Source: Candidatus Obscuribacteraceae bacterium (GTDB taxonomy: Bacteria > Cyanobacteriota > Vampirovibrionia > Obscuribacterales > Obscuribacteraceae). From it: a stretch of 64,000 nt of DNA. The translations under genes and the position numbers were made by a program. Of this stretch, positions 1,948 through 26,500 are shown piece by piece; position 1 is the first letter of the stretch; every line of letters starts with the position of its first letter. The stretch lies in assembly GCA_044226015.1 (NCBI GenBank), contig JBGAHS010000011.1, positions 128,001 to 192,000 on the forward strand, in the 5' to 3' direction. Under the pieces are notes generated by a model. That model did not search any database. It saw only the letters and a list, made by a program, of their open reading frames with translations, and was not told where the DNA came from.

Positions 1948-1963
1948 TTAACATCCGCTCCGT

Positions 1964-2557: not shown

Positions 2558-2793
2558 GCTCCATCCTCAAAGGAAGTGATGACAGTAAAACTAAACGATG
2601 CGGGAACCTTAATTCCATTATTCCCTTTAGGTCCTTGGAATCCTAGAGGCTGCAATGGGTTTTGTGAGTTAACTTTTATGTTCAGTGAAATACACAGCCA
2701 GAAAGGTAGTCATTTCAATACTTTCTGGTCACAATCTTTGTGCCACCGATGTTAACCCGACTTAACAATGAATTCGTTTTTGTAAAAATGAGC

Positions 2794-3408: not shown

Positions 3409-3569
3409 TGGCTGACCTGATGCAATTTAATAAACCGAAAATCATCAGTTGAAAAACATATTTTTCCCAAAAGAAAAAAGTTTTCTCCATTTATTGAAAA
3501 AATACGTTTCCCCGACGTTGCCAAGTGGTACAAAAAGTATGTCCCCTCTCCCCCGCATCGGATTTTTCC

Positions 3570-5119: not shown

Positions 5120-5162
5120 ACATGTTCGAACCGATCAAATCCCTCCCCCCAGGAAACAGATC

Positions 5163-7310
5163 ATGATAAAGCGCCGAAAATCCGAAAGAGCTAGCTCGCC
5201 ACCATCATCCAGAGATGAGCGCGGTATATCTTTAGCTACAATCCTTGCAATTGGCACAGTCTCTTCATTGTGGATAACTGCAATGATGGCAATCGTTATG
5301 CCCACATACCAGAAGACAGCAAGCTTGAAATCAGGCACCGCAGCCAGAGCTGCAGCAGAAGCAGCGCTCGACTACACATTGAACCAAATGAACAACTCTA
5401 TATCGCAGGGACAAATTTCTAGTTATGACTGTGACCCGACAACTGTAGGTTCGAGCAAACTGAGTACAATAAGTCCGTCAGCACTTGGTCTTTCCCAGAG
5501 CAATGCCACCATTAAAGTTTTGGTGCAAAACGTAGCCCTGGCAGGACCACAATCAGGCTCTTTGACGCAGCCTATGATTTTCGACCCTCAACTTGCACAA
5601 CTCATTAACAGCGGCAAGTTAGCAAATCCATACAGACAACTCACTGCATCTGTGACTATTGGAAGTGTGACAAAACTTTTGCGAGTGACGCTGGTTCCTC
5701 AATCTGTCCGACCAAGCAACGGCTCTACAAATGGGACGGTTTTTCCGACCATGCCCTTTGCGATATATGGAGTCAACCAAACTGCCTTTGTTGGATCCGT
5801 TGGACTAAATAGTTACGTTGGCAAATCAAATGGACATGGGGCCTACGTGGACCCTCCCGCACCGCGTCCAGCCATGTTAGACCCAAGGGTTCGCGCTGAC
5901 TTCGGAAGTGGTACCACTGTAAATCAGGTGGGCTATGGTAGCAGCTTCAGTGGCATGGCACTGGGCGGAACCCAAATGGAATTTTGCGACCCAATCGTCA
6001 GCGGAACACAGGCAGCAAGCGCAATAGCACAAATGTACAATGCTTCTGCTGTGGCAAAAGCACCCTGGGTTGATGTTTACGATAACGTTTATTCCAATTA
6101 TCCAAACGCAGGTGACGTGAGCAATCCCGTCAAAGGCATCGTTTACGCAGACAAGACTACTGCAGGTTTGCCGGGCTCTGGCTACATTCCAAGAGGCTGG
6201 GATAACTCGACCGCTAATGGGTCAAATCAGAATAGCTATAACAATGTTTTTGGCTTAAGCAATACTATGGGATATTATCCATTCGACCATGCATCATGGG
6301 GTGATGCGAACTACAATGCCTCTACGATGTATCCCAGCGTCGCCGACAATAACAATATGGGAGGAGTGCTTTCAAGCGCACAACAATACTCAAAACCACA
6401 GATTCCGCCAGTTCCCACTTCACCTAGCACCGCAGTGCATTTAGGAAATATCAACCTCTCAGGCTCTGCTCAAATAGTAATCACTAAAGCAGCCCCCATG
6501 CCTACAGCACAAATTGGCAGTATCAGCAAGGGCACAATACTGCTTCCGCCAGGCGACTACAGCATTACAGGGCTGTCGATGACAGGCACATCAAAAATCA
6601 TAATCGACCCAACAGTTCAAAATCCGACAAACTTTTACCTCGAAGGAAACGTTTCCACCAATGCTGCTGTACCCGCAGTAAACATCGCAAACACATGCGA
6701 CATCAATATGAGTGGACTAATTCAAACTCCGGGTACAGCGAGCCTCTCAATAGGCAGTACCGGCTTCAACCTCAGCGGCAGCACTGGGGAAAATGGACAC
6801 GGTAGCACCATAAGCGGCACCAGCACTGCTATCAACAGAACATCTTCTATTAATGAGATTGCGGGCTCAGCTGGATTCTTGAACCTCTACTACAATGGAC
6901 CCGGCTCAGGAGCTTCTGCTGGTTCGCCATCAACACCACCAAGCACCACTTTTGCTTTTAATGGCAAACAGCGAATGACAGTGTTTGCACCAAACGCCAA
7001 CATCCTCATAGGCGCAGGCACAGACTATACGCGCCCGAGCGAGTTTTTCGGTGCTGTGGTTGGCAACTGGGTAACCGTGACTGGACCCCGACTAGCCAAC
7101 AATATTAGTTTCACTGCGTTCCATTACGATGTTAAATTGCGCCCGAATGGAGGAGCATTTACAAACCCAAATCAGACAGTTTCGGTTTGGGGTAATCCCA
7201 CTTCCGGAGACTGGACAATAGCTGGTGGCTACAAGGCAGTCACCTGGCAAGAAGCAAAAATACCGAGCAATGACCCAAGCGCCTGGTCGAATACAAGCAC
7301 CTGGCAGTAA
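5163..7310 (+). CDS. Large PilX-like protein with C-terminal beta-rich adhesin-like region (start probably ATG 5163)
   Basis: AGGA RBS at 5151; RDERG|ISLATILAIG; ARAAAEAALDY (PilX N-terminal pattern); C-terminal VFAPNANI...FFGAVVG...FHYD...VTWQE typical of PilX-like tip proteins. Confidence 0.7.
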   Translation: MIKRRKSERASSPPSSRDERGISLATILAIGTVSSLWITAMMAIVMPTYQKTASLKSGTAARAAAEAALDYTLNQMNNSISQGQISSYDCDPTTVGSSKLSTISPSALGLSQSNATIKVLVQNVALAGPQSGSLTQPMIFDPQLAQLINSGKLANPYRQLTASVTIGSVTKLLRVTLVPQSVRPSNGSTNGTVFPTMPFAIYGVNQTAFVGSVGLNSYVGKSNGHGAYVDPPAPRPAMLDPRVRADFGSGTTVNQVGYGSSFSGMALGGTQMEFCDPIVSGTQAASAIAQMYNASAVAKAPWVDVYDNVYSNYPNAGDVSNPVKGIVYADKTTAGLPGSGYIPRGWDNSTANGSNQNSYNNVFGLSNTMGYYPFDHASWGDANYNASTMYPSVADNNNMGGVLSSAQQYSKPQIPPVPTSPSTAVHLGNINLSGSAQIVITKAAPMPTAQIGSISKGTILLPPGDYSITGLSMTGTSKIIIDPTVQNPTNFYLEGNVSTNAAVPAVNIANTCDINMSGLIQTPGTASLSIGSTGFNLSGSTGENGHGSTISGTSTAINRTSSINEIAGSAGFLNLYYNGPGSGASAGSPSTPPSTTFAFNGKQRMTVFAPNANILIGAGTDYTRPSEFFGAVVGNWVTVTGPRLANNISFTAFHYDVKLRPNGGAFTNPNQTVSVWGNPTSGDWTIAGGYKAVTWQEAKIPSNDPSAWSNTSTWQ

Positions 7311-8040: not shown

Positions 8041-8652
8041 ATGAATACTCAAGTAAGCATGAAAAAGAGTTATGCAGATGTACCCACTGCAGACCTCGTA
8101 ATCATGGCGCAGAGAAAAGATGAAGCGGCACTGACTGAATTGCTAAAGCGACACAAAGCGTTCATATCCAACAGACTTTATAAGTTAGCACCAGATTGGA
8201 AGGATCAGTCAGATCTCATTCAAGAAGTTAATATCCGCGTTTGGCGATTCATCGGACAACTTAAGAAGGCTGCATCATTCCGTACCTGGCTATCCCAACT
8301 GATTCTGAACGTCTTCTACGATGAGCTGAGAAAGAGACCACGCGACTTTTATATGGTGTCTCTTGATGAGCCAATGTCAGACGACTCAACTGACACGCGT
8401 GATATTAAAGACGCATGTCAGCTTCCAGATGACGAACTCCTGGGCAAGGAACTGATGGCGGTGTTGACTGAAGCTATGAAGGACATTCCGGAACAGTTTA
8501 AGCAAGCTCAGTTACTCCGCGACATAAAAGGACTTTCCTATGAGGAGATTGCAAAGCTTACAGGTACTGAGCTGGGAACGGTGAAGTCACGTATTGCACG
8601 GGCGCGCTTGAGAATTCAACAGCGCGTAGCACCTTACCTCGAGTGTGCATAA
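8041..8652 (+). CDS. sigG: ECF (group 4) sigma-70 factor, cyanobacterial SigG-like
   Basis: LAPDW.D..DL.QEV.IRV, F..WLS....N.FYDELRKR, region 4 GLSYEEIAKLTGTELGTVKSRIARAR; GAGGAG RBS. Orthology to sigG is from recalled motifs. Confidence 0.8.
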   Translation: MNTQVSMKKSYADVPTADLVIMAQRKDEAALTELLKRHKAFISNRLYKLAPDWKDQSDLIQEVNIRVWRFIGQLKKAASFRTWLSQLILNVFYDELRKRPRDFYMVSLDEPMSDDSTDTRDIKDACQLPDDELLGKELMAVLTEAMKDIPEQFKQAQLLRDIKGLSYEEIAKLTGTELGTVKSRIARARLRIQQRVAPYLECA

Positions 8653-8721: not shown

Positions 8722-11700
8722 TTAGTTTTTGAAGACACCGTGAGATGAGGTTACCAATTGCAGGCATGCTGCCATCTTGAGTAGTCTTGCTCCCAGATGT
8801 TTTTCCGCGGCTTCCGAGCTGTGAATAACATCATTTAGCAAATGGCTCGATGACATCAAAGAAAGTAAGGAATACTCTGCTAACTTGGCGTTTATTCCAC
8901 TGGCATTCTTCTCCACGGTTTCTTTGCGCACGGCCACAGAACTCTTGCTTCCAATTAACAGTCTTTGACCAGCACCGACAACGAACTCGCGGTCGCCAAC
9001 CTTAACCTTAACGGCACCCCAGCGAGATTCACAAAGATTGAATAGTTCAAGCTCAGTACCATCAGATTTGAGCAGAGCCACTCCATCGCCACTAATTTGT
9101 ACTTCACCCACAGCGCATTCCACTTTGCTTAGCTTGTGAGAATCAAGGATCATTTCACCTGAGATGAAGTGGAGTCTATCCGAGGAATGTCTCTCCAGTT
9201 TGCAAGCTCGTGCATAAACACTTCCATGTTCGCTTGCAGATTTCTGGATACTCTCAACGTCTACTTCAACTTTGCCTTGAACTGTCAATGGAGAGCTGCT
9301 AACACAAGCAATCGGTGTGAACTCTTTTGGATTTGAGTTGCTAGCCTCGACGGCACTTGCATTGACTGTTTGTTCCTCCAGTTTCTTGAACAAACTGCGG
9401 ACGGCACTGATATCAGTGCGCAGATTGCTGGACGATGCGTTAAACAAGACAGGCATCGCGACAGTTGTTCCCACAGTGGCGCTTGGTGCAGGTGCGGATA
9501 TGGCTTGAGACGATAGAATTCCAGTTGGAGCCGGCGGTGGATCCGCCAAAATGTATACTCCACCTGAAAGAACAATGGCAGATTTGTCTCTGCTGCCAGT
9601 ACTAAATACGATATTAGCGCCCCAGGCGTCCAACTCATTATTCTTGCCGTTCACAGTGATACCATTGGCACCAAAGTAAGCTTTTCCGCCCCATTTCTCG
9701 CTCACACTTGTGTTCGAGGGAATAGAACCCCTTATCGGGTTTGTTGGAATGGCACCTACAACGACTCTCACGTTGCCTAAGCCGTTGCTCTGACTGTCAG
9801 AAAGTGCAATCAAGGAGACATTTTTTCCAATCTTTATAACGCCAGAGGACTCGTTAGCATTTTGCAGAGTGAGATTACCTTGTCTTGCGACAAGCTCTGA
9901 GTTTTTTGCAACGTTCAAGTCACCTTGACTCTGCAGGTAAATGGAACCATTTCTGGTTTCCACATTTTGTACATTTAGCGCACCACTCGACTTCACAGTG
10001 AAGCTGCCACCAGCACTCGAATCGTCCAAATTCACGTTTCCGGTCACGGCTATGTTTACCAGGCCGTTACCCCAGGTCGACGCTCTCAGGTTTTCAGCTT
10101 TTACGGCTAAGGCTAAAGTGCTGCTTCCAATATTGCCCCTGTCAGATCTCAAAACGAGATTATTAGCCGTAATCAATCCACCTTGTTGAGAAATATTGCC
10201 TCTTCCATCAGCATTTATTTCAAGACAGTCAGCGACAAAATTGCCATTGAGGACAATATTGCCATCATCCTTGGTGCGCAAGACCACCTCAGTACCCGAA
10301 AGGGACCCGGAAACCTGCAAATTTCCCTCCCTGCTCGTAAATTTGTAATTCTTTCCGGCTATGTTTCCAGATACAGACAGATCACCGTCTGCTCTAAGTC
10401 TGGAATTATTGCCCATGGAAATCGTTCCAGCATTTACCGTCAAGGAAGAGTCATCAACTCTAAGGCGTACTCCGTTGCTTAAGGTCAATGATGGAACATC
10501 AACGATTACCTTTCCATTTGCTCCTGCATTGAAAGTTCCATTTGAAGTCAAAACCAGCGCTTTTCCGCTTGTTCCTATACTAATATCGCCAGTAGCTTTC
10601 AAGCTCAACCCTTCACCGACACTGTAAGAACTGACAGTGACAGCACCTTTGTTGCTGATGTGCGCCTCAGCAGCTGTGCTTACTGAAAGGGTTTGGGTTT
10701 CTGTGTGAATCGCATTTTTTGAAGAGCCGATATCTCCGGAACCCGACATCAGAGTGATAGACGCTGCTTTCAAAATTCCGGCAGTTTGTCGAATATTGCC
10801 AGAACCTATCGCAGAGACAAGTAAATCATTGATAACGATAACGTCAGCGGCAAGGGTTATCGTGCCATTGTTAGCAAGAGTTCGAATTATCAAACTGTTT
10901 GCATTTACATTTTGATTGATCAGCAGGTCTCCTGATGCTTCGATAATTGTCTGAGACCCAGCGTTAGGATTGTCTATCAAACCATTATTCACAAGCGTGC
11001 CACCAGGAGTCAAAACGCTGACAGTGTTGTCGCTGTGCAAAACAACGCTTGATGCAATTGTCACATTCGCATTGCTTGTAGATATGGTGACAGGAGCACC
11101 AGCGAAGTTAAGAGTTGATTGTCCTGCTCCAGCATTATTTTGCACGAAGTTTATCGGGGCAGCATCCGGAGCCGAGATTGTTATTGCGCTTCCACCACTG
11201 GTGCTTACCGAAGCAGCACCTGCCGGAAGTCCAAATGTAATACCTAGATTTGGCAATCCTACAAAATTGATGGATGACCCCTTGGCAGTGATTGCTGAGT
11301 TCGAACCAAAGTTGAGCAAGGGGGCCGTGAATGAAACGGAATTAGCACTATCGATGAGTATGCTTGCGCCATCCAGCAAATTGATTGAACCGTTAGATTG
11401 AAAGTTGACTTCACCATTCACGCCAGCATTGAAATGCGGCGTACCAGAAACAGAAATGCTGTCACCAACGTTCAACGCTAGAACGTTTATTGTTCCAGAA
11501 AGCCCAGATGAGAAGCCTACAGTTCCAGCGCCAGCAATAGTAATACCGAGAGGATCCTGAAGTACTATCACTCCATTACTTTGAGAAGAAGTAATGTTGC
11601 CGTCCAGATGAAGGGTTCCACCATTGACGTTTATTTGAATGTTTCTATCTGAACTCAGGTTTAGACTTGCCAGAGAGGTGTCAGCAGCACTGCTGGTAGT

Positions 11701-14700
11701 AATCAATCTTCCACCCTGCACAGAGAGATTTGCTATACCCAGTCCACTGCTGGTGAAGACCAACGGAGCTCCAGTGCCACTTGCGAAGCTTACGTCACCG
11801 CCTGCACTCGCGATGATGTTGTTGGACGAACTTCCCGTTGCTGTAATTGTAAGTGGTGCACCCAAGCTGGATTGGACCACCAAGGCTTGTGTATCATTCG
11901 TAGCGGTTATACTGCTACCGCTGCCAAAATTTAAAGCGTTTGTAGATATGTTCAGTTTAGTACCGCCAGCAGCAGTCAAGCTAACACTTGAACCAAGATT
12001 TACTCCAGAACTAGACAAGCTTGCTGTTTGAACTGTCAGAGAGCCCGTGGCTCCGGCGTTGACTACGTAAGATGTATTGAAATTCACGCCATTAGAGCCG
12101 GCAAAAGTGACCGCTGAATTAGCCCCACTCGCAAGTACATTGCCATTGCTACCGGACAAATTCAATATGGCTGAAGAATCCACTAGCAGCTGAGCTCCAG
12201 CCGCAGAAATTTGAATGCTGCCATCCAGAATCAAGTTATCTGTGTGAAGCGTGATATTTCCCGAACTGGAACTGAGCTGATTACCCAGCCCGATCTGAAT
12301 GTTTGTGCCGCCGCCATTTGAGGCGAGATTTACACCATTGTTACCGCTTACGGAGCTGAACATTGAAATGTTACCGTTAGCGCTGAGATTCAAAGTTCCT
12401 GCATTTAGATTTGCTTCTATCGCAAGGTCGCCATCATTATTTAGCTCAAACGTACCGGCAATAGTCGAGGTACGCAAGTCCATCTGGCTTGCATTATTAA
12501 TGTATACAGAGCCACCACTATTAACTTGAAGTTCAAGTACGTTTGCTTCGATTGGTGCGGACTTAGACCCTATATTTCCAGATTGAGAGTTGAGAACGAG
12601 AGTACCAATTCCTGTCGTGCTGGAGCCTACCTGATTTATATTGCCCTTGCCCTGAACGCTTAGAACAACAGTTGGAGAACTAATATCTGCCCCGAGATTG
12701 ATGCTTCCATTTCCAACGGTTGATACGTTCAATTGCTTGGCGCTAATTGGAGAATTAATATTTACGTCGCCACCATTGGCTATTATTTCAACGCCGATAT
12801 TTGTACTGGTATCAAAAGCATCAGAATCAATATTTACACCAGAACCCAGATTTATTGCACCATTAGAAGTGCCCATACTGACAGTCGCACCCGAGACTAC
12901 CAAATCTGCATTGCCACTCGTGTTCAAAGATAAGGAACCGGTGCCGCTGGGTTCAATCTGCAGAACACCAGGTCGAACTGAATTGCCCTGGCTTATGCTG
13001 AAGGTAACGGTTGAACCATCGGCAAAGTCTAACGAAAGTGAGCCAGACTGAGTACCACTGTTCAGCTTCAAAAGACCAGCATTGTTCATTGCCAGATTCG
13101 CATTTCCAAGGAAATGAATACTTGGAGCACCCAATTCTATTGCACCCTGGCTAGCGTTGAGACTGGCGCCTGCCGCTACATACACTGCCGTGGAAGCTTT
13201 CAGAGTGATATTTCCGGCACTTGTGCTGATGTTCTGTGCACCCAGCTTGGACACAGCCCCGTCAAGAACAACCGAATAGTTCTTTGCAGAGCCGTTGAAA
13301 TTTCCAACAACATCGCCTAGACCACTGATCGATACATTTGACGGAGAATTAGCATTAATTGCACCCATGTTTTGATCGCTTGAACCTGACAAGTTCACTT
13401 TCTGGTTCATTGCCACAAGCAAATCATTTGCACCGGAAGAAAGACTGAGCTTTCCTCCATTTGCACCACTAGCGGAAATCGTGCCAGTGCCTTCCACTCC
13501 GGCGTTGCTGTGTCCTATATTCATGCTCAATGAGGAATTCTGCGTCAGCGAAATGCTACCTCCATTCTGAGCACCATCAGCAATGACATTCGCGTCTGTG
13601 ATATCAATAACGCCGCCCTGGCTTGACCCTGCGTCAACAGAGATGGTACCGCCGTTTGCACTGGCAGAACTTGAATTGATTGTGGCCGAATTCAATGTGA
13701 CATTGCGGCTTGCACTGAGCAGAACAGAGCCACCATCGCCTCCCTGAGAACTGACATCAATTTGACTTCCTTTTCCTATTTGAAGATCTGCATTGTTTCC
13801 TCCAGCTGCCAGTGAAACTGAGCCGCCGTTGCCAGTGCCGGTGGACGATGCTACGAGAACCGACCCGTCAGCAAGGTTAAGCTGCGGCGCCATCAAATCA
13901 ATTTGTCCGCCCTTGCCAGAACCGGCACTGTTAGCCGAAAGCACTCCTGATAAATTCAGGCTGTGGTTTGCCGAAGCAAGTTGCCCGGGCGCTGAACCGC
14001 CTGCAGTCAACGAGACTTTGCCCCCATCACCATCGACCGAGACACCCACATCGATTCCCGAGCCTGCAACAGACAGGTCGCCAGCAGCGGTGATGATAAC
14101 GGCTCCGCCGTTGCCGCCAGCGGAGCCGCCACGAGCACTCAGGTTGAACCCACTTCCATTACCGATGGCAAGGTCGCCAGCAGAACTGCTTGTACTTCTC
14201 ACATTCACGGTGATCGTTCCGCCGTTACCTGTTCCAACACCATCCGCCCGCAAAGTGCCGTTAACCTTTAGTGAGCTGCTGGAAGCGCTGGCATTCAAGC
14301 CCGTATCAATGTTTATGCTGCCACCACTGCCATTTTTTGCTGCAGAGCTAACATCAACTACATCAGCGTCAATCGACATCGAACCATCAGAAATAAGTAT
14401 GATGGTTCCGCCGTCGCCGCCCTGGCTACCGCTTCTTGCGGAAAGCTTAGCCTGCCCAGAGGCAAGAACAAGGTCTGTTAATGAATGAAGTTCGATTGTT
14501 CCACCAGGAGCAGAGTCAGCTCCAGCAGCATTAAGATTCAAGGCTCCGTGAATTCCGTCAGCAAAAACAAGGTTGATCGTTCCACCTTTCTTTCCGGCAA
14601 AGTCACCGCCTTTAGTGGTGATGGTCAAATCATCAATATGAAGACTTCCGACAAGTTCAACCGATGAGGCACCGCCACCATTGCTGGTGATGTTCATGCT

Positions 14701-17523
14701 TTTAGCGTCAACAACAGAATTTGTTCCACCAATAGACACGAAGCCTGCACTCGCTATTCCATGACCACTGGTGTCAGCAGTAAGCGAACCAACTTGTATT
14801 TGCGGCGAAGACATGCTTAGAGTGCCACCTGAGTTATTGCCGCCTCCTGCAGCCGAAACCAGGATGTCACCTCCTGTAATACCGGTGGACGAGCTGAAGT
14901 TGACCTGCCCGCCCTCACCAGAACTTCCACCATTGGCACTGTATTGAGTACCACTTAATACCAGCGCACCATCCGAAACTAGAAGGATCGTGCCGCCATT
15001 TCCCGTATTGGAATTGATGACAATCGAACCAGCATTGATACCACCGGTACCATGATTGCTAGCAAAAATGGTTCCACCAATTCCGCCATCAACAGAAATA
15101 AATCCAACCGAGTTCTGTCCACCTCCAGTGTTAATTCCCAGGGCAGGAGTACCATCAGTAGGCTGAGCATTAACATAACTGCTTATGCTCACAGTGCCAC
15201 CCTGTCCGAGTGGATTGGAGTCGATGATAGAGTTAACGCTCACCCCCGCAGCGGAGTTAATGACAACAGATGCACCGTTGGCTGTGATGCTGCCAACCTC
15301 AACATCACTCTTGGATGTCGAAAGTGCAACTGTTGAGGATGAACCGCTAGCTCCAGTGATTTCTGCACTACCAAGCGAAACCTTGTCAGATTCGACCATG
15401 TCGACTCCAAACAAACCTGCAGTCAGGTTTACAGACCCGCCCGCACCACCGGTAGCGCCATTCGCTTTAATGTCGACTTTGCTCAGATCTATATCGGCAA
15501 CACCGTAAGTCGTCAGGAATGAAATTGAGCCCCCAAAGAGTCCGCTGGCCTCAATAGCTGACTTCCCAAACAAGACAGAGCCACCGTTAACGAATGCACT
15601 GATTCCGCCGCCGGTGCCATTTTTCGAGCTCAAATCCATTGAGCCATTTCCAACAAACAAACTACCAGCCATAGCCTGAATTGTTAGAGTTCCGCCATTA
15701 GCAGCAATGCTGGAAGCATTTATGGATGCATTTCCCGTGCCACCAAGGTTTATGTCGCCAGCTTGAGCCACCACATTGATAGAGCCCGCATTACCAGTGT
15801 CACTGGATGTGTTTATCGTGACACCATTCTGCATAGTGATAGCAGCTGCGGAACTGAGTGAGACAGATCCCGCGTTGCCTCCCAAAGCGCTAGTATTGAT
15901 GGTCAGAGGACCAGAACTGATTATTGAACCTGCATTAGAATTGATGGAAACGTCGCCCGATTGCGCACCGGTAGTGCTGGTGATAAGCGAGCCAGACAAA
16001 AGTATTGGTCCATTTGCAGTTAACGAAATATTGCCAGAGCTGGCGCCAGAAGTCGCAGTGGTAATCGCGATTATCGGCACAGTTTGAAGATCGATCATGC
16101 CTCCAGCGTTGAGGATCACACTGCCGGTTGCACCGCTGTTGGCGCTTGTGCCAATGTAGGAAACATCTTTGTTGATGATGTTGCCACCAGCATTGATAAT
16201 GAGAGCATCCAGACCGGAAAAGATCCACTCGCCGCCAAATTGCGACATTTCAAGAAAGACATCTCCACCAGATGAAATGGTGGGGTCTCCAGACATCTTT
16301 AAGGCACCAACATGAAGATCGCCAGTTTGCGCAGATAAAGCGGCTGTTCCACCAATCAAATTAGTCTGACCTAGAATAGAATGAACATCTACATTAATAT
16401 GTCCATCACCAGAAAAAACATTTAGTTGCTGCGAAATCCAATCGCCACCGATCAGAGATGTATCAAATTTGTCCGTGAAGAACTGGTCACGAATATTGAT
16501 ATTGCCATTAAGAGCCTGGAGAACTCCGCCAGTGTTGTTGATAGTCAAATTTTGTGCGACCTGACTTGCAACATTTATATTTCCAGCCATGGCATTAACC
16601 ATACCAGCGTTTTGAACGGCCGCTGAAACAATATTGACGTTAGACATTGCTTGCATCAGAGGACTTGGTCCACTCATTCCGGTTGGCAATGCATTTATGA
16701 CTGAGCCACCGGCATTCAAATTCAAATTGGCTGCACTACTGATGACACCAAAGTTGCTAATGTTCTGAACCGCGTTTAGACTCAAGCTCAAGTTGTTAAT
16801 TAGATTACTGAAACCACTTATTCCGCCCTGCGGAAGCATGGAAGTTAGCAAACCACCCTGCATGTTGTTGATATTTTGAGCAGAGATCACTGCACTCATA
16901 ACCTGGTTATTGTTTGATACAGCAAAGAAATTTCCCGAATTTACGAGGTTTCCGGTGATGTTCAATACACCAGATTGACCAAAGTTCCTCACTGCTGTGA
17001 CACCGGTAGGGATGACCAGGTTAGTGACATTACGTCCGGAAAGCGTGAATTGTCCGCCTGTGGCGACTCCCATAGCGTCGAGAACCAGGCTCTGAGTTCC
17101 CCCACCCAGAACCTGGCTCAATGCGACACTTTCTGCTGGTGTCAGTTTCATACCTGGTGAAACTGTCACTGTCGACCCCCCGACAGTGATAGCACCAGAT
17201 TGCTGAGCACCAGCAGTAACCGTTTTGTTCGAAGAACTTAAGTCCAGGTCTCTGGCTGCGTAAGCTGCAGGCAAAACAAACTGAAATACGAGCACTGACA
17301 CTGCACTCAGTGCGTAGGGCATTGATGCCGGCATCGAGTTATCGCAGTATCGACGCTGCTGTGTAGTTGTTCGCTGCCTCGCGAACAAATGCTCGCGCTG
17401 ACCATGTGGATCTGATCCAATAGAAAAAGGGGACTTCGCAGTCATATGTAGCACCTGCCTTGGGGGGAAAGGCAATCGCTTCCGAACCTGCTCGGAGCAA
17501 TTGGCGGGCTTTTGCGCAAACAT
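8722..17523 (-). CDS. Giant exoprotein 1 (up to 2933 aa), filamentous-haemagglutinin-like beta-solenoid adhesin; start uncertain (17523, 17445 or later)
   Basis: Uninterrupted ORF; signal-like MPYALSAVSVLVFQFVLPAAYA; G/S/N/T-rich GNGGxIxI repeats; N- and C-terminal modules shared with the two other giants. Confidence 0.8.
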   Translation of the reverse strand: MFAQKPANCSEQVRKRLPFPPRQVLHMTAKSPFSIGSDPHGQREHLFARQRTTTQQRRYCDNSMPASMPYALSAVSVLVFQFVLPAAYAARDLDLSSSNKTVTAGAQQSGAITVGGSTVTVSPGMKLTPAESVALSQVLGGGTQSLVLDAMGVATGGQFTLSGRNVTNLVIPTGVTAVRNFGQSGVLNITGNLVNSGNFFAVSNNNQVMSAVISAQNINNMQGGLLTSMLPQGGISGFSNLINNLSLSLNAVQNISNFGVISSAANLNLNAGGSVINALPTGMSGPSPLMQAMSNVNIVSAAVQNAGMVNAMAGNINVASQVAQNLTINNTGGVLQALNGNINIRDQFFTDKFDTSLIGGDWISQQLNVFSGDGHINVDVHSILGQTNLIGGTAALSAQTGDLHVGALKMSGDPTISSGGDVFLEMSQFGGEWIFSGLDALIINAGGNIINKDVSYIGTSANSGATGSVILNAGGMIDLQTVPIIAITTATSGASSGNISLTANGPILLSGSLITSTTGAQSGDVSINSNAGSIISSGPLTINTSALGGNAGSVSLSSAAAITMQNGVTINTSSDTGNAGSINVVAQAGDINLGGTGNASINASSIAANGGTLTIQAMAGSLFVGNGSMDLSSKNGTGGGISAFVNGGSVLFGKSAIEASGLFGGSISFLTTYGVADIDLSKVDIKANGATGGAGGSVNLTAGLFGVDMVESDKVSLGSAEITGASGSSSTVALSTSKSDVEVGSITANGASVVINSAAGVSVNSIIDSNPLGQGGTVSISSYVNAQPTDGTPALGINTGGGQNSVGFISVDGGIGGTIFASNHGTGGINAGSIVINSNTGNGGTILLVSDGALVLSGTQYSANGGSSGEGGQVNFSSSTGITGGDILVSAAGGGNNSGGTLSMSSPQIQVGSLTADTSGHGIASAGFVSIGGTNSVVDAKSMNITSNGGGASSVELVGSLHIDDLTITTKGGDFAGKKGGTINLVFADGIHGALNLNAAGADSAPGGTIELHSLTDLVLASGQAKLSARSGSQGGDGGTIILISDGSMSIDADVVDVSSAAKNGSGGSINIDTGLNASASSSSLKVNGTLRADGVGTGNGGTITVNVRSTSSSAGDLAIGNGSGFNLSARGGSAGGNGGAVIITAAGDLSVAGSGIDVGVSVDGDGGKVSLTAGGSAPGQLASANHSLNLSGVLSANSAGSGKGGQIDLMAPQLNLADGSVLVASSTGTGNGGSVSLAAGGNNADLQIGKGSQIDVSSQGGDGGSVLLSASRNVTLNSATINSSSASANGGTISVDAGSSQGGVIDITDANVIADGAQNGGSISLTQNSSLSMNIGHSNAGVEGTGTISASGANGGKLSLSSGANDLLVAMNQKVNLSGSSDQNMGAINANSPSNVSISGLGDVVGNFNGSAKNYSVVLDGAVSKLGAQNISTSAGNITLKASTAVYVAAGASLNASQGAIELGAPSIHFLGNANLAMNNAGLLKLNSGTQSGSLSLDFADGSTVTFSISQGNSVRPGVLQIEPSGTGSLSLNTSGNADLVVSGATVSMGTSNGAINLGSGVNIDSDAFDTSTNIGVEIIANGGDVNINSPISAKQLNVSTVGNGSINLGADISSPTVVLSVQGKGNINQVGSSTTGIGTLVLNSQSGNIGSKSAPIEANVLELQVNSGGSVYINNASQMDLRTSTIAGTFELNNDGDLAIEANLNAGTLNLSANGNISMFSSVSGNNGVNLASNGGGTNIQIGLGNQLSSSSGNITLHTDNLILDGSIQISAAGAQLLVDSSAILNLSGSNGNVLASGANSAVTFAGSNGVNFNTSYVVNAGATGSLTVQTASLSSSGVNLGSSVSLTAAGGTKLNISTNALNFGSGSSITATNDTQALVVQSSLGAPLTITATGSSSNNIIASAGGDVSFASGTGAPLVFTSSGLGIANLSVQGGRLITTSSAADTSLASLNLSSDRNIQINVNGGTLHLDGNITSSQSNGVIVLQDPLGITIAGAGTVGFSSGLSGTINVLALNVGDSISVSGTPHFNAGVNGEVNFQSNGSINLLDGASILIDSANSVSFTAPLLNFGSNSAITAKGSSINFVGLPNLGITFGLPAGAASVSTSGGSAITISAPDAAPINFVQNNAGAGQSTLNFAGAPVTISTSNANVTIASSVVLHSDNTVSVLTPGGTLVNNGLIDNPNAGSQTIIEASGDLLINQNVNANSLIIRTLANNGTITLAADVIVINDLLVSAIGSGNIRQTAGILKAASITLMSGSGDIGSSKNAIHTETQTLSVSTAAEAHISNKGAVTVSSYSVGEGLSLKATGDISIGTSGKALVLTSNGTFNAGANGKVIVDVPSLTLSNGVRLRVDDSSLTVNAGTISMGNNSRLRADGDLSVSGNIAGKNYKFTSREGNLQVSGSLSGTEVVLRTKDDGNIVLNGNFVADCLEINADGRGNISQQGGLITANNLVLRSDRGNIGSSTLALAVKAENLRASTWGNGLVNIAVTGNVNLDDSSAGGSFTVKSSGALNVQNVETRNGSIYLQSQGDLNVAKNSELVARQGNLTLQNANESSGVIKIGKNVSLIALSDSQSNGLGNVRVVVGAIPTNPIRGSIPSNTSVSEKWGGKAYFGANGITVNGKNNELDAWGANIVFSTGSRDKSAIVLSGGVYILADPPPAPTGILSSQAISAPAPSATVGTTVAMPVLFNASSSNLRTDISAVRSLFKKLEEQTVNASAVEASNSNPKEFTPIACVSSSPLTVQGKVEVDVESIQKSASEHGSVYARACKLERHSSDRLHFISGEMILDSHKLSKVECAVGEVQISGDGVALLKSDGTELELFNLCESRWGAVKVKVGDREFVVGAGQRLLIGSKSSVAVRKETVEKNASGINAKLAEYSLLSLMSSSHLLNDVIHSSEAAEKHLGARLLKMAACLQLVTSSHGVFKN

Positions 17524-17667
17524 CTGGGGGAGATGTTACACGGATAATGGGAGGGGACTGGCGTCTATATACCCGGTTGCCAAGAGATCGAATCAGATGT
17601 TTTCCTACAATTTCGAAAACAAGAAATAAAAAGTCTTGTCAGCAACTGCGGACAGCCCAACTGGGGA

Positions 17668-17696
17668 TTTCCACACAAAAATTAACAGCATATAAG
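17668..17696 (+). promoter_or_regulatory. Putative sigma70 promoter for intergenic RNA
   Basis: TTTCCA (17668-73) - 17 bp - TATAAG (17691-96). Confidence 0.45.
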
Positions 17697-17702
17697 GTTT
17701 TA

Positions 17703-17913
17703 GATAGTTTTCCTGGGGGAAATATATATCTTGGTCTGACATATCGGGAAAATCAAACAGTGAAAACGCTCTGGGGGGAGGGTTTACGCGGTTTGTGAAC
17801 GAGAGGCTTTCAGCGCTCATCCTGAATGTAAGACCAAACTAAACTGGGGGGTAGGCGCAATAACCTTGCGCCGAGCAGCAGTGGAGGACCGAGTTCTCCA
17901 CTGCTGTTTTTTT
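17703..17913 (+). ncRNA. Candidate structured small RNA with three CUGGGGG motifs
   Basis: Nested stems by eye: TTGGTCT 17731-37/AGACCAA 17831-37, ACAT/ATGT, TCGGGA 17744-49/TCCTGA 17820-25, CAAAC 17754-58/GTTTG 17791-95, GGCGCAA/TTGCGCC 17854-72; ends in a strong intrinsic terminator; no convincing ORF. Confidence 0.6.
17876..17913 (+). terminator. Rho-independent terminator
   Basis: CAGCAGTGGAG-9 nt-CTCCACTGCTG (11-bp perfect stem) followed by T7; no protein gene ends here on + strand. Confidence 0.85.
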
Positions 17914-18025
17914 ATTCTAATCACATTCTCAGGTTATATTGCTAAAGGCTCGCAGCTGACAAGCCTTCAGGCAAGTTATCATGATTCACCTACAGCTAAG
18001 GGGAGAGGACTAAGTCCTAAGCGAA

Positions 18026-19330
18026 ATGGCTCGACTGGTACAGAAATTCGGCGGCAGCTCGGTCAAAGACAGCAAGCATATCCAAAATGTTGCTCAAATA
18101 GTCGCAAACACATACAAAGCAGGAAAAGAACTTGTCGTCGTAGTGTCGGCTATGGGAGAAGCCACGGACCAACTACTGGAGCTGGCAAGTCAGGTCAGCG
18201 ATGTGAGCGAAGCAAGAGAATTGGATGTTCTGCTCGCCACTGGAGAACAAGTATCTATTTCCATGCTAGCGCTCGCATTGCAGAGCATGGGTATGAAGGC
18301 TCGTTCATTCACAGGACCGCAAGCAGGAATAATTACGGACGACACGCATGGATTTGCGCGTATCAAAACTGTTCATCCTAGCAGAATCGAAGCCTCGCTC
18401 AGAGCCGGTGAAATTGCTGTAGTAGCAGGGTTTCAAGGTATGACCCGCTCAAGCGAATTAACTACTTTAGGAAGAGGCGGCTCAGACACTACAGCAGTTG
18501 CTCTAGCAGCAGCGCTGAAAGCTGAGTGCTGCGATATCTACACTGACGTTGATGGCGTCTACTCAACCGACCCGCGCACAGTTAAACAAGCAAAAAGGTT
18601 AAGCGCCATTTCTTACGACGAAATGCTCTCTCTCTCATCTCATGGTGCGCAGGTGTTGAATGCTCGCTCGGTCGAGTTAGCAATGAAAAACAAAGTAGCA
18701 ATTCGTTGTCGCTCAACATTTGCCCCCGATGACCTCGGCACCCTGGTCTGCAGCAGAGATCAAACTCCGAGTTACCAGGTTTGTGGTGTAGCTTGTGACA
18801 GCTCACGGGTGTCTTTCAAATTAGATCAAATATTCGTTTCATCTGATACCATATCCGGTGAAGAGATAGATAAGCACCATGCGAAAGTTAACGCTTTGAT
18901 TGAACAGCTAGAAGAAATTGGCGTTCCAAAAGAAAAGGTCCTCTGTCACAAGGGGGACGACTCGGTCACCAGAGAAATCGAGTTAAACTGTGAAAAACGC
19001 ATTGCAAAATCAGTGCAAAAAGCATTAGAAATCGAATTTCCTAAAGGCGAAGTGAGAGTTGACCGCAGTGTTGCGACGGTGTCGATTATCGGAACCGGTG
19101 TACACGCAGACAAGCGATTGCGCAGCGACTTTTTGAAAACCTTAGCTGATGCAGAAATTACTGTCAGTATGATGATGGCTGATGAACTAAGCTTGTCTGC
19201 AGTCATACCAGAAATGCTGAAAGATGAAGCTATCCGCAGAGTACACAAACGCTTTTGTGAGGATAGCAACACCGAGGAGACCTTTCAGGGACAAGCAGAC
19301 GTAAAAGTAAGCGCGGGGAACATGAAATGA
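18026..19330 (+). CDS. lysC: Aspartate kinase
   Basis: VQKFGGSSV, VVVVSAMG, TTLGRGGSDTTAVALAAAL, IYTDVDGVYSTDPR; C-terminal ACT-like region. Confidence 0.95.
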   Translation: MARLVQKFGGSSVKDSKHIQNVAQIVANTYKAGKELVVVVSAMGEATDQLLELASQVSDVSEARELDVLLATGEQVSISMLALALQSMGMKARSFTGPQAGIITDDTHGFARIKTVHPSRIEASLRAGEIAVVAGFQGMTRSSELTTLGRGGSDTTAVALAAALKAECCDIYTDVDGVYSTDPRTVKQAKRLSAISYDEMLSLSSHGAQVLNARSVELAMKNKVAIRCRSTFAPDDLGTLVCSRDQTPSYQVCGVACDSSRVSFKLDQIFVSSDTISGEEIDKHHAKVNALIEQLEEIGVPKEKVLCHKGDDSVTREIELNCEKRIAKSVQKALEIEFPKGEVRVDRSVATVSIIGTGVHADKRLRSDFLKTLADAEITVSMMMADELSLSAVIPEMLKDEAIRRVHKRFCEDSNTEETFQGQADVKVSAGNMK

Positions 19331-20516: not shown

Positions 20517-23500
20517 TTATGGCTTAGAGCCGGCTCGCTCGTAAGCGCCTTTTGAAGCTCCCATGATAGCGCTCACTACGGCAGTCTTCATCATTCTCTT
20601 ATATGCATTCTGCTCTCTACTATTTTTTGAATTGCGTAACGATGCAATTGATTTGATTTCTGTCATTGCAGATGAAATTGAAAATTCAGAGGAAAACTCC
20701 TTGTTCTTGCCAAATACTTTGGACTGAACTCTTCTGTGACCAATCATATGCAGAGAATTGGCATTGCCCAGTGAGTCCGTTGAATCAGAGGTAATCGTCA
20801 CATGGCTACCTGGCGCAAGATTCAGAGTTCGCCCTTCAAATTTAAAGGAAACATCGCTGGCATGTTCATCATGCAAGTCATAGACAGAGACAGCCTTGTC
20901 ACTTGCTACTACAAGAACGATGCTGCCCTTGCTCAAGGACAAAGAACCAAATCGCGTTTTCACGTCGATATTCCTGTCCGGTGAAAACAAAGCGCATCCT
21001 GCCTCAAGAAAATAAGCACCATCATTGCTGGTTCTCAACAAACTCTGTTGATTCGCATTATCTGCATTATTGCTCAGTCCAGCAATGGTACCCACGAAGA
21101 TGAATGGCTGCTGAGCGATATTTGCATTTTCACCATTTTCAACGTTCTCAGCGCTGTCACCACTCAGTATGTTCATGATGGGACCACTCAAAGAAAGATT
21201 TCCATCAACAGTTATCACTCCGTTGGACATGGGTGGAGCTGATCGGATGGCTCCAGGATCTAACAAAAGCGCAGCCAGGGTGGCATTTGCATTGGCAGAC
21301 TGCGACACTCCACTCTCAAGTAGGCTAGTAGAGCTGCCCGAGTTTGAGGAACCAAGAAAAACTTTGCTGACGAAAACAGACCCAGTGGTGTTTGATGTAA
21401 CAGTTGTATTTGTGGTGGTACGAAGTGGATCAGCGGATGTGCCGATGTCACCGCTAGCGCTGTTAAGATTTAGCGTATTTGCAACAAGTAAACCCGTACC
21501 TGAAATGGTACCGCTGCCGTTTGCATTTAAGTTAATAGTACCAAATCCGGTGTGTACTAAATTCTTAACGACTACACTTCCATTGTTACCCGTAGTCAGA
21601 TTAACCACTCCATTTGGGACGCGAATTAGTGCATTGGAAACGATATCTCCACTCGTGGTCTGGAAGTTCAAAGAACCCGCCTGAACTCGTCCATTCAAAT
21701 TAAGAGTTGCATTTCCCGTAACTGATAGAGTTCCACGTGTCGACAAGACACCATTCTGCCCCATTGATAGAGCAGGAAGGGTATTCGTTTGAATATTGAT
21801 ACTGTTAACCAGGTTAGCAGTGCCCACGAAGTTCAGGGATCCGTCTACAAGAACTGTATTCGTAAAACTGATTGGTGAGACTTCGACATTTACAGGTGAA
21901 ACAAAGTTTCGCAAAGTAAGAACCACATTTTGAGGAACACTTAGCCCGACTAAATCAGGAAAAATGTCAGTCTGTAGCACTACAATATTTCCGCCTATTG
22001 CCTGCCCAGCGGCATTCAATCTAATGTGTCCACCAAGTAGTCCCATGTTTTGCAGTGTTTTTACTTCAGCAGCAACCTGGGGATCTTTCAAGTCCAGACT
22101 GCTGAGTTGAGGAACAACATTTGCAATAACAATGCTTTTGCCGCCGATCGATACATTGCTAGCTTGAGCATCTACTATGACCTTGGAATTAACACCACCT
22201 GCTCTGATCAAATTGGATGGGGGACTCGCCACCAGTCCATTGGCTCCGAGAAAAACCTGTCCTCCGCCGTTAGCGTCTACAACGACATTAGCCACCGGCA
22301 AAGTCGGATTGGACAGAGCTGCAGCGCCAGGTCCCACTGAAATCTCCACTATGGCACCGGAAGGATTGGTCGCGATCAAGTAATCGTGTTTTCCAATAGA
22401 AATTGTGCCTACAGGACTAAGATTTTTCAGAATTAAATTCCCATCGTGAGCGAGAACGTGCACATTGTCTTTTATAACAAGAGCACCACTTGAGGTCGAA
22501 ATGGACAGGTTCCCTTTGCTGGTTAAAACATCTTGCACTGTAATATTGCTGTTCGTCGTCAAATCCAGAGATTTTGATCGACTATTCAAATTACTAATGA
22601 CACCCAGATTGTTGACACCCACGCCACCACTGCTGTGTATCTCAATAGGACCTGACACACTGGTTTCAAGTTTGCCCGAGCTGGATTTTATCCCACCATC
22701 TCCGCTAATCAGAACAAGATTGGAAGCACTAAGCGTACCGCTGGATTGAAACACAGAGCCATCTGAAGTTCTGCCGATCCCCGGAGAAGTATTGCTGCCC
22801 TGCAATAAGGCACTGTTGGCAGTGATGCTGCCATTCACCAGTAATGAACCACCGCCAATTGCAGCTAAACCTGCTCGTTCCGAAACGGCGACTGAGCCAT
22901 TCAGAGTCAAATCGCCACGCTCCATGATGACAAAATTTCGACCGACAAAACCATTATTCAGTGTCAGCTTACTGCTGACATTGTCATTGTAAATAAAGAC
23001 ATCGCGACCTGACGATGGCAGATTCAAGACAGAAGCAGTATTAACCAGAGGTTTTAGCGGTGCACCGATATCAGTCACAGCCTGCAAGTTCAAGGTACTT
23101 GCATTGACCATCGAATTTGTTGAGAGAATGCTCGAACCCGAACGAATATCTACAACACCTGAGGCTGAGACATTTCTGTTCAGGAAAACTCCAGAACTGC
23201 CTCCGCTAGCATCGAGGAGAATACCCTGGTCCGCTTGCAAGACACCACTTACTGCAATACCAGGCGCAACAAGATTGAAGTTTCGTCCTCTAGACGGCAA
23301 GCCTCCTGCACCACCGAGAGTAACTGCGTTTGTACTTGTTATTTGAACATCACCTGCAGAACGAGCGAGAACTTCGGATGCAGATGTGCTTCCAACTTGT
23401 ATTCCACCAGTCGAAGATAGCGCTCCAAGAAAAGTGGTAGTGACACTATTGGCGGTGACGCCAGCGCCTCTGCCTTGAGCAACAAGAATAACTGTATCTG

Positions 23501-26500
23501 GTGCAGAAAGATTGCCGACGTTTATGCTTCCATTGCGCGACTCTAACATTATTCTCTGGCTAGACAAATTGCTCAGCCCAATTGCGTCATTGATAGCAGC
23601 ATTCGTTGTGACCGTTATAATGCCCTTTGGACCTGGGGCATCAACACTGTTTTGAATCGAAAGAGTGTTCGACTCAATATTGATAGCACCGGCCTTGATG
23701 GTGCCTGAGACATTCAGATTTGCGGTGGAATCAAAAATGAAGATGCCAGCTTGTGAACTCAGGAGATTCAGATTATTTGACTTGCTATCAATATAAGTAC
23801 CTGCGAAGCTGTTAAAGGTCAGAAACTCGCTGTTTACGGACATTGCTCCCTTTACAGATCCAATATTGCCTCTCGCCGAATTCATACTTATGAAATCAGC
23901 TGTAAGACCAGATTTATTGGACACTATATCTTCGCTTGCGTTTATGTAAATGGATCCAAAACTGGCTTGACCGCGAGCACTTGTTACAGCGCCGGTGTAG
24001 ATCGAACCAAAAGGTTGCTGATTAGCTACTGATGAAGAGTGAGCGGACAAGCTGACTAGATGATTGTTAGCGGAACCTATCTTTACATTAGGAAGATAGA
24101 TGTCACCGCCTGTGCTGCTGGGTCCACCAAGAACTAGCCATTGCTGTTGTCCCGGACTTGTACCGTAGGTTCTAGAAGCAGCAAGGGTACCTGCTGCCAT
24201 AATGATAGAGCCGCTAGGTCTGGAACCGCTCCCCGCCGTGACTATTGAGCCTCCACTGGCGCCAGGAGCAATGATGTTGCCTGAAGCGAGTACTACAAGG
24301 TCACCGGTCGCTTTTTGCCCTCCAGACATATAGTTTGTCAAACTAACATCACCGCTGCCATTTTGTATGAGAGTTGTAGGTGATGTCTCAAGAACGACAC
24401 CATTGCCATTAGCAATATTCAAACCAAAGCTAGTAAACCATGAGAGGTTTCCGAATAGCATGGGCTTTACCAAGAAGTCGACATTGCTAGGTCTTGTTAG
24501 AAAAGTGATGGACCCACCAGTCACAACCGGCGCCTTCCCACCCCCAGAAGGGAGAATGGCAGATACGCCTTGTATGGTGATATTGCTTGCTTGCAAGCTA
24601 ATGACACCACCCCGCCCGATTTCAGCAACTGGGTCAGAAGTAACACAAGGAGTACAAAGGTTGAATAACGGAATAAATGTTCGGGTCTTTACGATAGAAA
24701 TTTGAGTGCCACCAGCTGCCGATACGGTACCTCTCACATCAATGTTGCCGCCAGCGCGAAACTCAATTTGTCCGCCCACTGATGCAGGACCCGAGGTGTG
24801 AGTTGGGGTTTGGGTTAGTCCAACATTTAAGCCACCGATGCTTCTTTGCGAGGCACCTGCAGTACCCATAGAGACAGGTGCCACGATGCCATGCCCAAAT
24901 CCAGTTATAGGTGCGATAACGCTGTTGCCGCCACTTATATTAGCTAAACCAAGTGACAGATCTACGCTGTTACCCGTGCCCTGAGTGGTGCGCGTCACAA
25001 CGCCATCGAAATTTACACCTGGAATACCTACAAATGTTGCCAATCCAGGAGCAACATCGATAATGTCGTGCCTGGCAAACTCACCATGAGAACTAACAGA
25101 AATATACAAGGGGTTAGATAGACTTTCTGAAATGCCCAGTTGAAGATTGAAGGTGCTTTCACCCTGAAGATTCGCATGATTCAAGAAAAGCACCTGACCT
25201 GGTCCCAAATTCAGAGCCAGATTTGTAATATCGTAGGTTTGCAAGCCACCGATAGTGAAGTTGTCGATAGTGACCGCACCAAGAAGCCCCAGTGTTGGTC
25301 CGATTATAGAGGCAAGAAAACTCCCATCATCCGTAAGCGATGCTCCAAGAGTCAAACCCAAATAAATTCGCGTAGCACCATAGGAGCCATCGCGTCCGTT
25401 TAATCCGGCATAACCGGGATTACCACCGTTGCCACCTGAAGCATTTGCATTCCCGTTTACGTTGATGTCACCTTTTGGCGCAAGAAACGATATGGTGCCA
25501 CCATTACCGCCGACACCTCCGATACCTCCACCTCCGCCAACGCCGCCTTGCCCGCCTGGAGAACCAACAAAGCCTATGTTTATGGAAACGCCTGCGTTAA
25601 GTGCAAATCCGCCACGTGGAAGGTTTTGCCCGTTTGCTGAACCCTGCAAGAAAATGCCCGCACCACTGGTTGCGCCATTACCACCATTTCCACCGGCGCC
25701 ACCATTCCCGCCATTGCCACCATTGCCTCCAGCGGCAATGACGCCTGTGGGGGCCGATTGAATGGTTGGAGCCGGCAACGACACTGTTTGAAAGCCATCG
25801 TTAAAGGATGTCGAATAAACATGAGTTAGCGGAGTGACAGACAGAGTGTTCGCACCTATTCCAAGAACGATGAGTTGCTCAGAGCGCTCGGCGCTGCTTA
25901 AAGTAATACGTTGTCCTATGAAATAGCCTGTCGTTGACGAAACTTGCAACACGCTGGCCCCAGGCAAGAAGAAAACATTTTTGCCTGATTGAATGTCAAG
26001 GAAGGCGCCGTTATTCACAGACTGAACACCAGAAATGGGTCCTTCTGTCGGGCTGATGGAGATATTATTATTGTTGGACTTGATGACTATCGTGCCACCA
26101 TCTCCACCCGAACCGCCACCACCACCTGCATTGGCCGAGCCACCATTGCCCCCAGAACCAGCGGAACCACCGACAGCCGCCGAACCGCCTCTGCCACCAT
26201 TCGTACCATCACCGCCTGCTCCACCATCGCCACCATTGCCGCCATCTCCTCCAATGGTATGAACATTACCGGCGATGGACACTAACTGAGAGGTGTTTAT
26301 CTGAATGTAGCCGCCTTCTCCGCCTGCACCACCACCGCCACCACTTCCTGCGCCTCCACCATCGCCTCCAGAACCGCCATTCCGTCCGACAAAAGCAACC
26401 GTTCCGTTTCTACCGGCGGCCCCGGCATTGTTTCCAGCACCGCCATCACCTCCGATTCCGCCGTCTCCTCCATTGGCAAATATGGACGAACTATCCAAGA

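Follow-up and report, generated by a model that had tools for sequence, protein, structure and literature searches.

Genomic context of the locus

In the present study, a 64,000-nt stretch of DNA (the window) from a Candidatus Obscuribacteraceae genome of 8.2 Mb, which is 92% complete (G000), was analysed. A gap of 580 nt separates an open reading frame of 2907 amino acids on the minus strand (8722..17445, start at 17445) from a divergently oriented aspartate kinase (lysC-like) gene on the plus strand (18026..19330). Within this gap lies a predicted G-tract small RNA of approximately 185 nt (17729..17913, plus strand), herein called G-RNA. For the aspartate kinase gene, which lies outside the RNA, a separate promoter-like site is present at 17956-17985. 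The start codon of the giant gene is at 17445-17443; gene starts were taken from a crude gene caller, which missed the start of this gene. The encoded protein is Gly/Ser-rich, probably secreted and perhaps adhesin-like, and no Pfam or NCBIfam family was found for it; its Atlas cluster, in which 29% of the members carry PF05594 (score 0.81), is regarded as a lead only.

The same genome encodes 49 paralogous giant open reading frames of 1698-14400 codons, including those at 8722-17445 and 20517-28757 of the window, and the one tested had no Pfam or NCBIfam match. Related N-termini were observed in 47 of the 104 genomes of the family. Two divergent minor-pilin-like operons occupy positions 922-7310 of the window, and beyond them lies a gene for an ECF-type sigma factor (8041-8652).

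For comparison, seven congeners (G001-G007) and a metagenome contig (L046) were used. Eight homologous loci were obtained (G000, G002-G007 and L046), while G001 has a remnant only.

Structure and conservation of the G-tract RNA

From its 5' end, G-RNA is predicted to consist of a closing stem (P1) and a three-way junction with a side hairpin bearing a partly conserved GCAUUG-type loop (17731..17837), within which a hairpin (17764..17785) presents a G6 tract at 17773-17778 in its loop (seed 1). A linker between stems follows, carrying CUGGGGGG at 17844..17851 (seed 2, G-tract 17846-51), then a GGCGCA/UGCGCC hairpin (17854..17872) and an intrinsic terminator (17876..17913) composed of a hairpin at 17876-17906 and seven T residues at 17907-17913. 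The multibranch stem, the 7-bp hairpin and the terminator were thus confirmed as given in the preliminary description of this DNA, as were the three CTGGGGG motifs at 17713, 17771 and 17844. Three such motifs in the 211-mer originally delimited did not arise in any of 5000 dinucleotide shuffles, and two arose in 4 of 5000; among the six CTGGGGG clusters of the 8.2-Mb genome, only that of G-RNA holds more than two copies. The fold z-score was -6.6 for the 211-mer, -4.1 without the terminator (0/300 shuffles as low) and -7.0 for 17729..17913.

The claim of three exposed CTGGGGG seeds held for two of them. Seed 1 retains five or six G residues in all eight homologues, with a predicted mean unpaired probability of 0.67-0.81, and seed 2 retains CUG followed by five or six G residues in all eight (predicted mean 0.46-0.76), whereas the first motif, at 17713, occurs in only one homologue. 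The conserved G-tracts are therefore two only, 73 nt apart, the first displayed by a hairpin loop and the second by a linker. The 5' hairpin proposed to display the first motif as part of the RNA was likewise present in 1/8 homologues, and it falls in the promoter spacer described below.

Covariation over the homologues, another of the checks proposed earlier, supported the scaffold. In a MAFFT alignment, with the structure defined from the same sequences, 92.3% of the cells were paired and 10 of the 33 pairs showed two-sided changes; none of 500 shuffles scored as high, and slid controls reached 33-52%. The covariation is found mostly in the seed hairpin (98.2% paired, two-sided changes in 4/7 pairs) and in the terminator (4/10 pairs). 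The GGCGCA/UGCGCC hairpin is 97.9% paired with four of six pairs invariant, P1 is 93.8% paired with zero two-sided changes, and the side hairpin is 82.8% paired. Outside the seeds, conserved sequence is observed in the 5' stem and the side loop. No conserved small open reading frame was found in G-RNA.

A BLAST search recovered G-RNA in four of the seven other genomes of the genus, and a covariance model (R1) was trained on the resulting five sequences. When the best 25 candidates per genome were scored, so that distant homologues may be missed, R1 matched 7 of 104 family genomes, namely G000 and six of the seven congeners, and none of the 96 others. The homologues outside the training set (G003, G005 and L046) scored 86-128 bits, that of L046 having been found through a promoter-anchored pattern. 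A looser pattern gave 49 matches in 185,579 species genomes; 43 failed the model and the six that passed are all labelled Candidatus Obscuribacterales or Obscuribacteraceae, so that no match outside Obscuribacterales passed as G-RNA. Pairwise identity among the eight homologues is 52-65%, except for one near-pair at 94%.

No Rfam family matched the element or its homologues: the best overlap with G-RNA in Rfam 15 reached 15.3 bits (E 7.4), where the gathering threshold is 60, and the eight loci gave no matches at E <= 1. For 6S RNA (RF00013) there was no match at G-RNA, the only candidates lying on other contigs below threshold, among them a weak one at G000:C6:800550-800755 on the minus strand (L301; E 0.04, 23 bits). 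Two weak matches within G000 (E 0.5 and 3.4) were rejected as paralogues and attributed to chance. Viral contigs searched with the patterns for G-RNA and for the second RNA described below gave no matches, and a literature search on regulatory RNAs of this lineage, mostly among open-access papers, returned no relevant study. As read from sequence and predicted folding, G-RNA is conserved and structured and exposes two G-tracts; it probably represents an undescribed RNA family.

Several sequences near individual homologues were also recorded. The remnant in G001 (L018:1308-1415) spans approximately 80 nt, has the same promoter layout and carries one G5 loop inside a terminator hairpin, with no giant gene beside it. 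In G084, a candidate distant G-RNA (L205:14400-14650, unscored by R1) is oriented divergently to a giant gene with GGGTAT and C6 in its leader. The RNA of G007 shares an 11-mer with the strand opposing the leader Shine-Dalgarno (SD) sequence (L010:1607-1617 and 1897-1907), which does not occur in the other homologues, and in G005 alone two near-identical palindromes of 34-36 nt lie in the interval from the RNA to the giant gene (L013:1246-1281 and 1442-1477).

Predicted promoter and independence from lysC

Upstream of the RNA, all eight homologues share GGTTT, exactly 16 variable bases and GGGAA, followed by 7-8 bases to the first stem. A spacer of fixed length and free sequence is expected of a promoter, and we therefore read this region (17695..17722, plus strand) as a promoter with a -35 element AGGTTTTA (17695-17702), 14 nt and a -10 element GGGAAA (17717-17722). 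Since the first CTGGGGG is contained within this spacer and -10 box, the RNA probably runs from about 17729 to 17913, and the transcript of approximately 210 nt suggested in the preliminary description is shortened to a probable 185 nt. The promoter matches the B. subtilis SigB consensus RGGXTTRA-N14-GGGTAT at 7/8 and 4/6 positions, and its boxes also resemble the Synechocystis SigF -12 box (PMC2532724 for both). It thus resembles, by prediction, a SigB/SigF-type promoter; the pattern alone is weak, with 55 matches genome-wide. Two sigma factors of G000 are closest to the cyanobacterial SigF model PRK07408, under its cut-off. The sigma70-like promoter first placed at 17668-96 was absent from the list of a consensus scan; its TAnnnT hexamer is kept in only six of the eight homologues, and since it survives in these, a second, upstream start may exist.

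G-RNA is co-directional with lysC in G000, G004, G007 and L046 and inverted in G002, G003, G005 and G006, and it is absent from 29/29 other lysC loci. The position of G-RNA in G000, 110 nt upstream of lysC and on the same strand, might suggest a lysC leader, riboswitch or attenuator; however, because the element is inverted at four of eight loci and missing from the 29 other lysC loci examined, it is not read as such, and the lack of an Rfam riboswitch match and the separate promoter-like site of lysC after the terminator also speak against this role, which we consider extremely improbable and largely refuted already. In one RNA sequencing run, 5% of the words matched and the contigs covered lysC fragments only; as the organism may be absent from that run, it is uninformative on expression. 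The earlier proposal of a new, independently encoded structured RNA is supported by the covariation, the absence of an Rfam match and the inversion relative to lysC.

The two orientations, together with the pilin-like operons and giant paralogues nearby, could also point to a cis-acting DNA element, either an invertible cassette or a transcribed G-quadruplex driving variation of the pilins or giant paralogues, for which Neisseria pilE provides a precedent (PMC3547852). No flanking inverted repeat common to the eight loci was found, and programmed inversion was rejected on this ground. Moreover, only two G-tracts are conserved, at a distance from each other, a covarying RNA scaffold would be superfluous, and the Neisseria element requires a fixed orientation (same source). 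A DNA element is therefore very improbable in our view. The lysC and hutU trees did not distinguish a single inversion from several.

A second predicted RNA with C-rich loops

Because RosA and RsaI direct G-tracts at C-rich small RNAs, 240 intergenic C-run sites of G000 were checked for downstream terminators. This screen revealed a predicted RNA of approximately 235 nt, herein called the C-loop RNA (G000:C4:374724-374957, plus strand; L286:2724-2958), with four hairpin loops of C7-C8, a long, highly conserved 3' stem and a T-tract terminator. No other intergenic, non-tandem cluster of four runs of at least six C residues exists in the 8.2-Mb genome; the element has a fold z-score of -6.0 and gave no Rfam match. 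The element occurs at the same site in five of seven congeners (E <= 1.2e-17), thus in six of eight genomes of the genus, and its model matches 6/104 genomes. Across genomes it bears three to four loops of C5-C9, and 22 of 23 C-runs are predicted to be unpaired at a probability of at least 0.84. We regard the C-loop element as a finding in itself as well as a candidate partner of G-RNA.

Six of the seven genomes with G-RNA also contain the C-loop element. Kinship confounds this co-occurrence, as does the use of the same genomes to train the models; joint loss amounts to one genome (G001), and no genome-matched covariation was detected. In G001, which is 91% complete, the flanking gene is kept and the element is absent at the syntenic site; in G005, which is 70% complete, neither the element nor the flanking gene was found. 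When 30 syntenic loci were inspected by eye, related elements were seen in G084, G082 and G078 and a degenerate one in G081, with none in 24 others; these elements of three other genera carry loops of four to five C residues, and R1 finds no G-RNA in any of the four genomes, which in the case of G078, G082 and G084 speaks against the pairing proposal put forward below.

The C-loop element lies downstream of a palindrome, TTCCAA-N8-TTGGAA, which is repeated at many sites between genes. Its core, TCCAA-N8-TTGGA, has 31 matches in G000, e.g. C4:374683, C11:530762 and C11:1375691, and precedes the C-loop RNA, one giant gene and a sigma factor gene; the palindrome is likely the operator of a transcription factor. 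Other repeats were recorded in G000, namely intergenic tandem repeats of 21 and 51 nt with G6 or C6 runs (C11:727058 and C6:77329) and a dispersed intergenic repeat with a shared hairpin layout, probably REP- or MITE-like (C1:228192, C7:12709, C8:349883 and C9:204068).

A conserved leader of the neighbouring giant gene

The giant gene beside G-RNA is preceded by a GGGTAT -10 box (17574-17569) and a conserved leader of approximately 116 nt (17443..17574, minus strand), which constitutes the other candidate partner. Its C-rich sites are at 17549-17556, 17524-17530 and 17462-17467, and its SD sequence, GCAGGUGC (17451-17458), is predicted to be paired. All eight loci share the GGGTAT box, a 5' C-run, a predicted stem hiding the SD, an SD-proximal C-run and, across the first codons, a small hairpin. 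The SD-proximal run of C6-C8 ends 4-6 nt before AGGUG in every case and costs 0-1.0 kcal/mol to open, whereas the SD is predicted to be unpaired at only 0.22-0.37 in all eight leaders; its stem shows no two-sided changes. Viewed as a whole, the region 17425-17574 (minus strand) is a conserved structured element, and its small hairpin has four base pairs and mostly a GNRA loop.

A C-run beside the SD is rare: of 5930 predicted genes 10 have one, as do two of the 49 giant paralogues. Among other homologue loci it was seen in 1/25, the positional counterpart in G084, and in none of 10 further loci. A second giant gene of G000 (G000:C3:99096, minus strand; L047) has GGGTAT and CCCCCCAG directly before its SD and gives the best raw duplex with G-RNA; it was rejected as a conserved target, being not syntenic at 6/6 loci and having no clear orthologue.

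Two explanations other than repression of the giant gene through its C-run bear on these observations. First, G-RNA might act purely as a sponge that sequesters the C-loop RNA, itself a repressor of G-rich ribosome-binding sites (RBSs) like 6C or RoxS, with the leader C-runs serving otherwise, e.g. as an S1 or standby site. The C-loop-like elements of the other genera suggest an older, independent role for such RNAs; 80 predicted genes of G000 have a run of at least five G residues near their start; and small RNAs are the targets of the G-tracts of RosA and RsaI (PMC8216469; 10.1101/278127). However, this explanation leaves unaccounted for a C-run conserved at eight of eight loci in the very gene adjoining G-RNA and rare among its paralogues. 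The one target of the C-loop RNA that was tried, a pilin gene whose SD carries G6, was rejected as not conserved, with G5 in 1/14 other pilin starts. Pure sponging thus appears unlikely to us.

Second, G-RNA might be an activator that takes the exposed C-run as a toehold and opens the stem hiding the SD, forming a coherent feed-forward loop under SigF. The predicted pairing of the SD in all leaders and the GGG(A/T)A-type -10 boxes on both units are consistent with this idea. When the C-run was held open, the cost of opening the RBS shifted by -2.2 to +1.9 kcal/mol, becoming lower at seven of eight loci; however, the gain never exceeds 2.2 kcal/mol, where opening costs 3.8-10.3 kcal/mol, the effect is reversed in G002, and the SD stem lacks two-sided changes. 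Activation is, in our estimate, quite improbable. Because binding is predicted to shift RBS opening barely, we prefer a model in which bound G-RNA would block the upstream edge of the ribosome footprint.

Predicted pairing with both partners

In G000, the predicted net binding energy of seed 2 is -13.8 to -15.3 kcal/mol to the four C-loops and -13.9 kcal/mol to the SD-proximal C-run, while seed 1, which makes a short loop contact, is predicted to bind less strongly (-10 to -11 kcal/mol). With seed 2 energies this close, neither partner is expected to have much of an advantage per site in the competition, and each C-loop RNA would offer four sites. G and C homopolymers are inherently complementary, and the match between seed and partner therefore holds low information. 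In permutation tests the cognate G-RNA/C-loop RNA pairs were no better than permuted pairs (p 0.53-0.99, 18/18 settings), and for G-RNA and the leader 7/9 settings were not significant, the other two reaching p of about 0.05, uncorrected. Apparent compensatory changes in G003 and G004 were lost under permutation and are for this reason not counted.

By duplex energy alone, the neighbouring giant gene ranks 59 of 5922; after the opening cost it ranks 128 among the best 250, in a sequence context whose beginning lay upstream of the start site predicted here. A global C-run regulon would be expected to enrich C-runs before genes on the sense strand, and no such excess was observed in G000. Further candidate targets were rejected: a pilX-like site at window position 5146 is missing in 3/3 orthologues, a tadG-like site is kept at 0/10 loci, and a gene with C10 has no C6 at eight loci. 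A GGGTAT...C6...ATG pattern matched about as often in 104 genomes as its reversed control, and a C6-SD-ATG pattern gave 14 matches versus 0 in eight genomes, in unrelated genes save the neighbouring gene.

The preliminary description had proposed a trans-acting small RNA, either pairing through several seeds or sponging a protein in the manner of CsrB. Base pairing is favoured here because complementary C-runs are conserved in two other predicted RNAs, whereas the CsrB-like branch was not supported. CsrB, RsmY and RsmZ are protein sponges with a repeated loop motif and their own terminator, and the CsrB/CsrA architecture combines repeated identical loop motifs with a matching motif beside an SD. 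G-RNA shares a repeated loop motif and a terminator with these RNAs; however, it has two motifs only, with 1-6 GGA and 0-1 ANGGA per homologue, and no match to CsrA (PF02599) was found in the 92%-complete genome, the control search being positive in 3/14 genomes.

A related explanation centres on another protein: a poly(C)-binding protein might bind the leader, with the four-loop RNA as its CsrB-like sponge and G-RNA masking the C-runs, or G-RNA might be a decoy for a protein that binds G-runs. The repeated loops of the C-loop element and the leader motif match the CsrB/CsrA architecture, a fixed protein motif would fit the absence of covariation between partners, and G-RNA also has conserved sequence outside its seeds, in the 5' stem and side loop. 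Nevertheless, the search for such a protein, which covered CsrA, gave no match, the one candidate tested yielded no conserved mRNA leader with a G-run, and two motifs per G-RNA are few for a sponge. We judge a protein-centred mechanism to be distinctly unlikely.

Discussion

Among known systems, G-RNA appears, by analogy and with partner binding predicted, to work most like RosA and RsaI. RosA of B. subtilis is a stand-alone RNA of approximately 200 nt in which G-rich segments that are single-stranded pair to C-rich segments in RoxS and FsrA, the G-C pairs being essential (PMC8216469). RsaI (RsaOG) of S. aureus has two conserved G-tracts, one of which binds C-rich small RNAs such as RsaG, and it reaches mRNAs through a separate CU-rich region (10.1101/278127). 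G-RNA resembles the former as a stand-alone RNA of similar length with exposed G-rich regions, for which a C-rich small RNA is a candidate partner, and the latter in its two conserved G-tracts; the traits of this class that are recognised in it, in sequence only, are its own promoter and terminator and two conserved, accessible G-tracts (unpaired 0.46-0.81). In contrast to RosA, the tracts are G5-6 rather than G4, the promoter is of SigF type rather than sigma-A, the phylum is different, and C-runs of an mRNA leader form a second candidate partner, with pairing being predicted only. Unlike RsaI, G-RNA has no CU-rich mRNA-binding region, and any mRNA target would therefore compete for the same G-tracts. 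Rfam and pattern searches revealed neither a match nor a sequence likeness to RosA or RsaI. The C-loop element, for its part, presents C-runs in hairpin loops as does the actinobacterial 6C RNA (PMC6486639), considered here together with RsaE/RoxS; it differs in its three to four loops, long conserved 3' stem and lack of an Rfam match, and G-RNA has the opposite polarity.

Herein, we propose with moderate confidence that G-RNA is a trans-acting small RNA that pairs with the loops of the C-loop RNA and with the C-run in the leader of the neighbouring giant gene, and that it is titrated between both. This proposal builds on the demonstrated conservation of G-RNA, its covarying scaffold, its two G5-6 tracts, the complementary C-runs in both partners and its independence from lysC. 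First, a SigF-type sigma factor would transcribe both G-RNA and the giant-gene mRNA, while the C-loop RNA would be under the separate TTCCAA-N8-TTGGAA operator. Second, G-RNA and the C-loop RNA would titrate each other, as RosA does with RoxS. Third, free G-RNA would bind the C-run approximately 16-24 nt before the start codon and hinder the loading of ribosomes. In other words, production of the giant protein might require both active SigF and a surplus of C-loop RNA (an AND gate), and a surplus of G-RNA would release the targets of the C-loop RNA. In favour of the proposal, a cyanobacterial-type Hfq is encoded in the genome.

The present study thus describes two new RNA families that are unrelated to each other, together with a structured leader that is conserved, and the pairing hypothesis can be tested without culturing the organism. 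The range is narrow, comprising one genus by model and perhaps a few sister genera, which limits the breadth of the finding. Taken to its full extent, the hypothesis describes a code of reversed polarity in a non-photosynthetic member of Cyanobacteriota, in which a G-tract small RNA would be the regulator, a C-run at the SD the handle and a four-loop C-rich RNA a multivalent decoy, so that an AND gate of three RNAs would join SigF and a transcription factor in the control of one giant surface protein; this complete scheme is tentative, and we rate it as rather unlikely. If it is true, the logic of G-tract and C-loop sponges, which we found described in Firmicutes only, would have arisen independently in this lineage, and the recognition of an mRNA through a C-run rather than a G-rich SD would reverse the usual polarity of such regulation.
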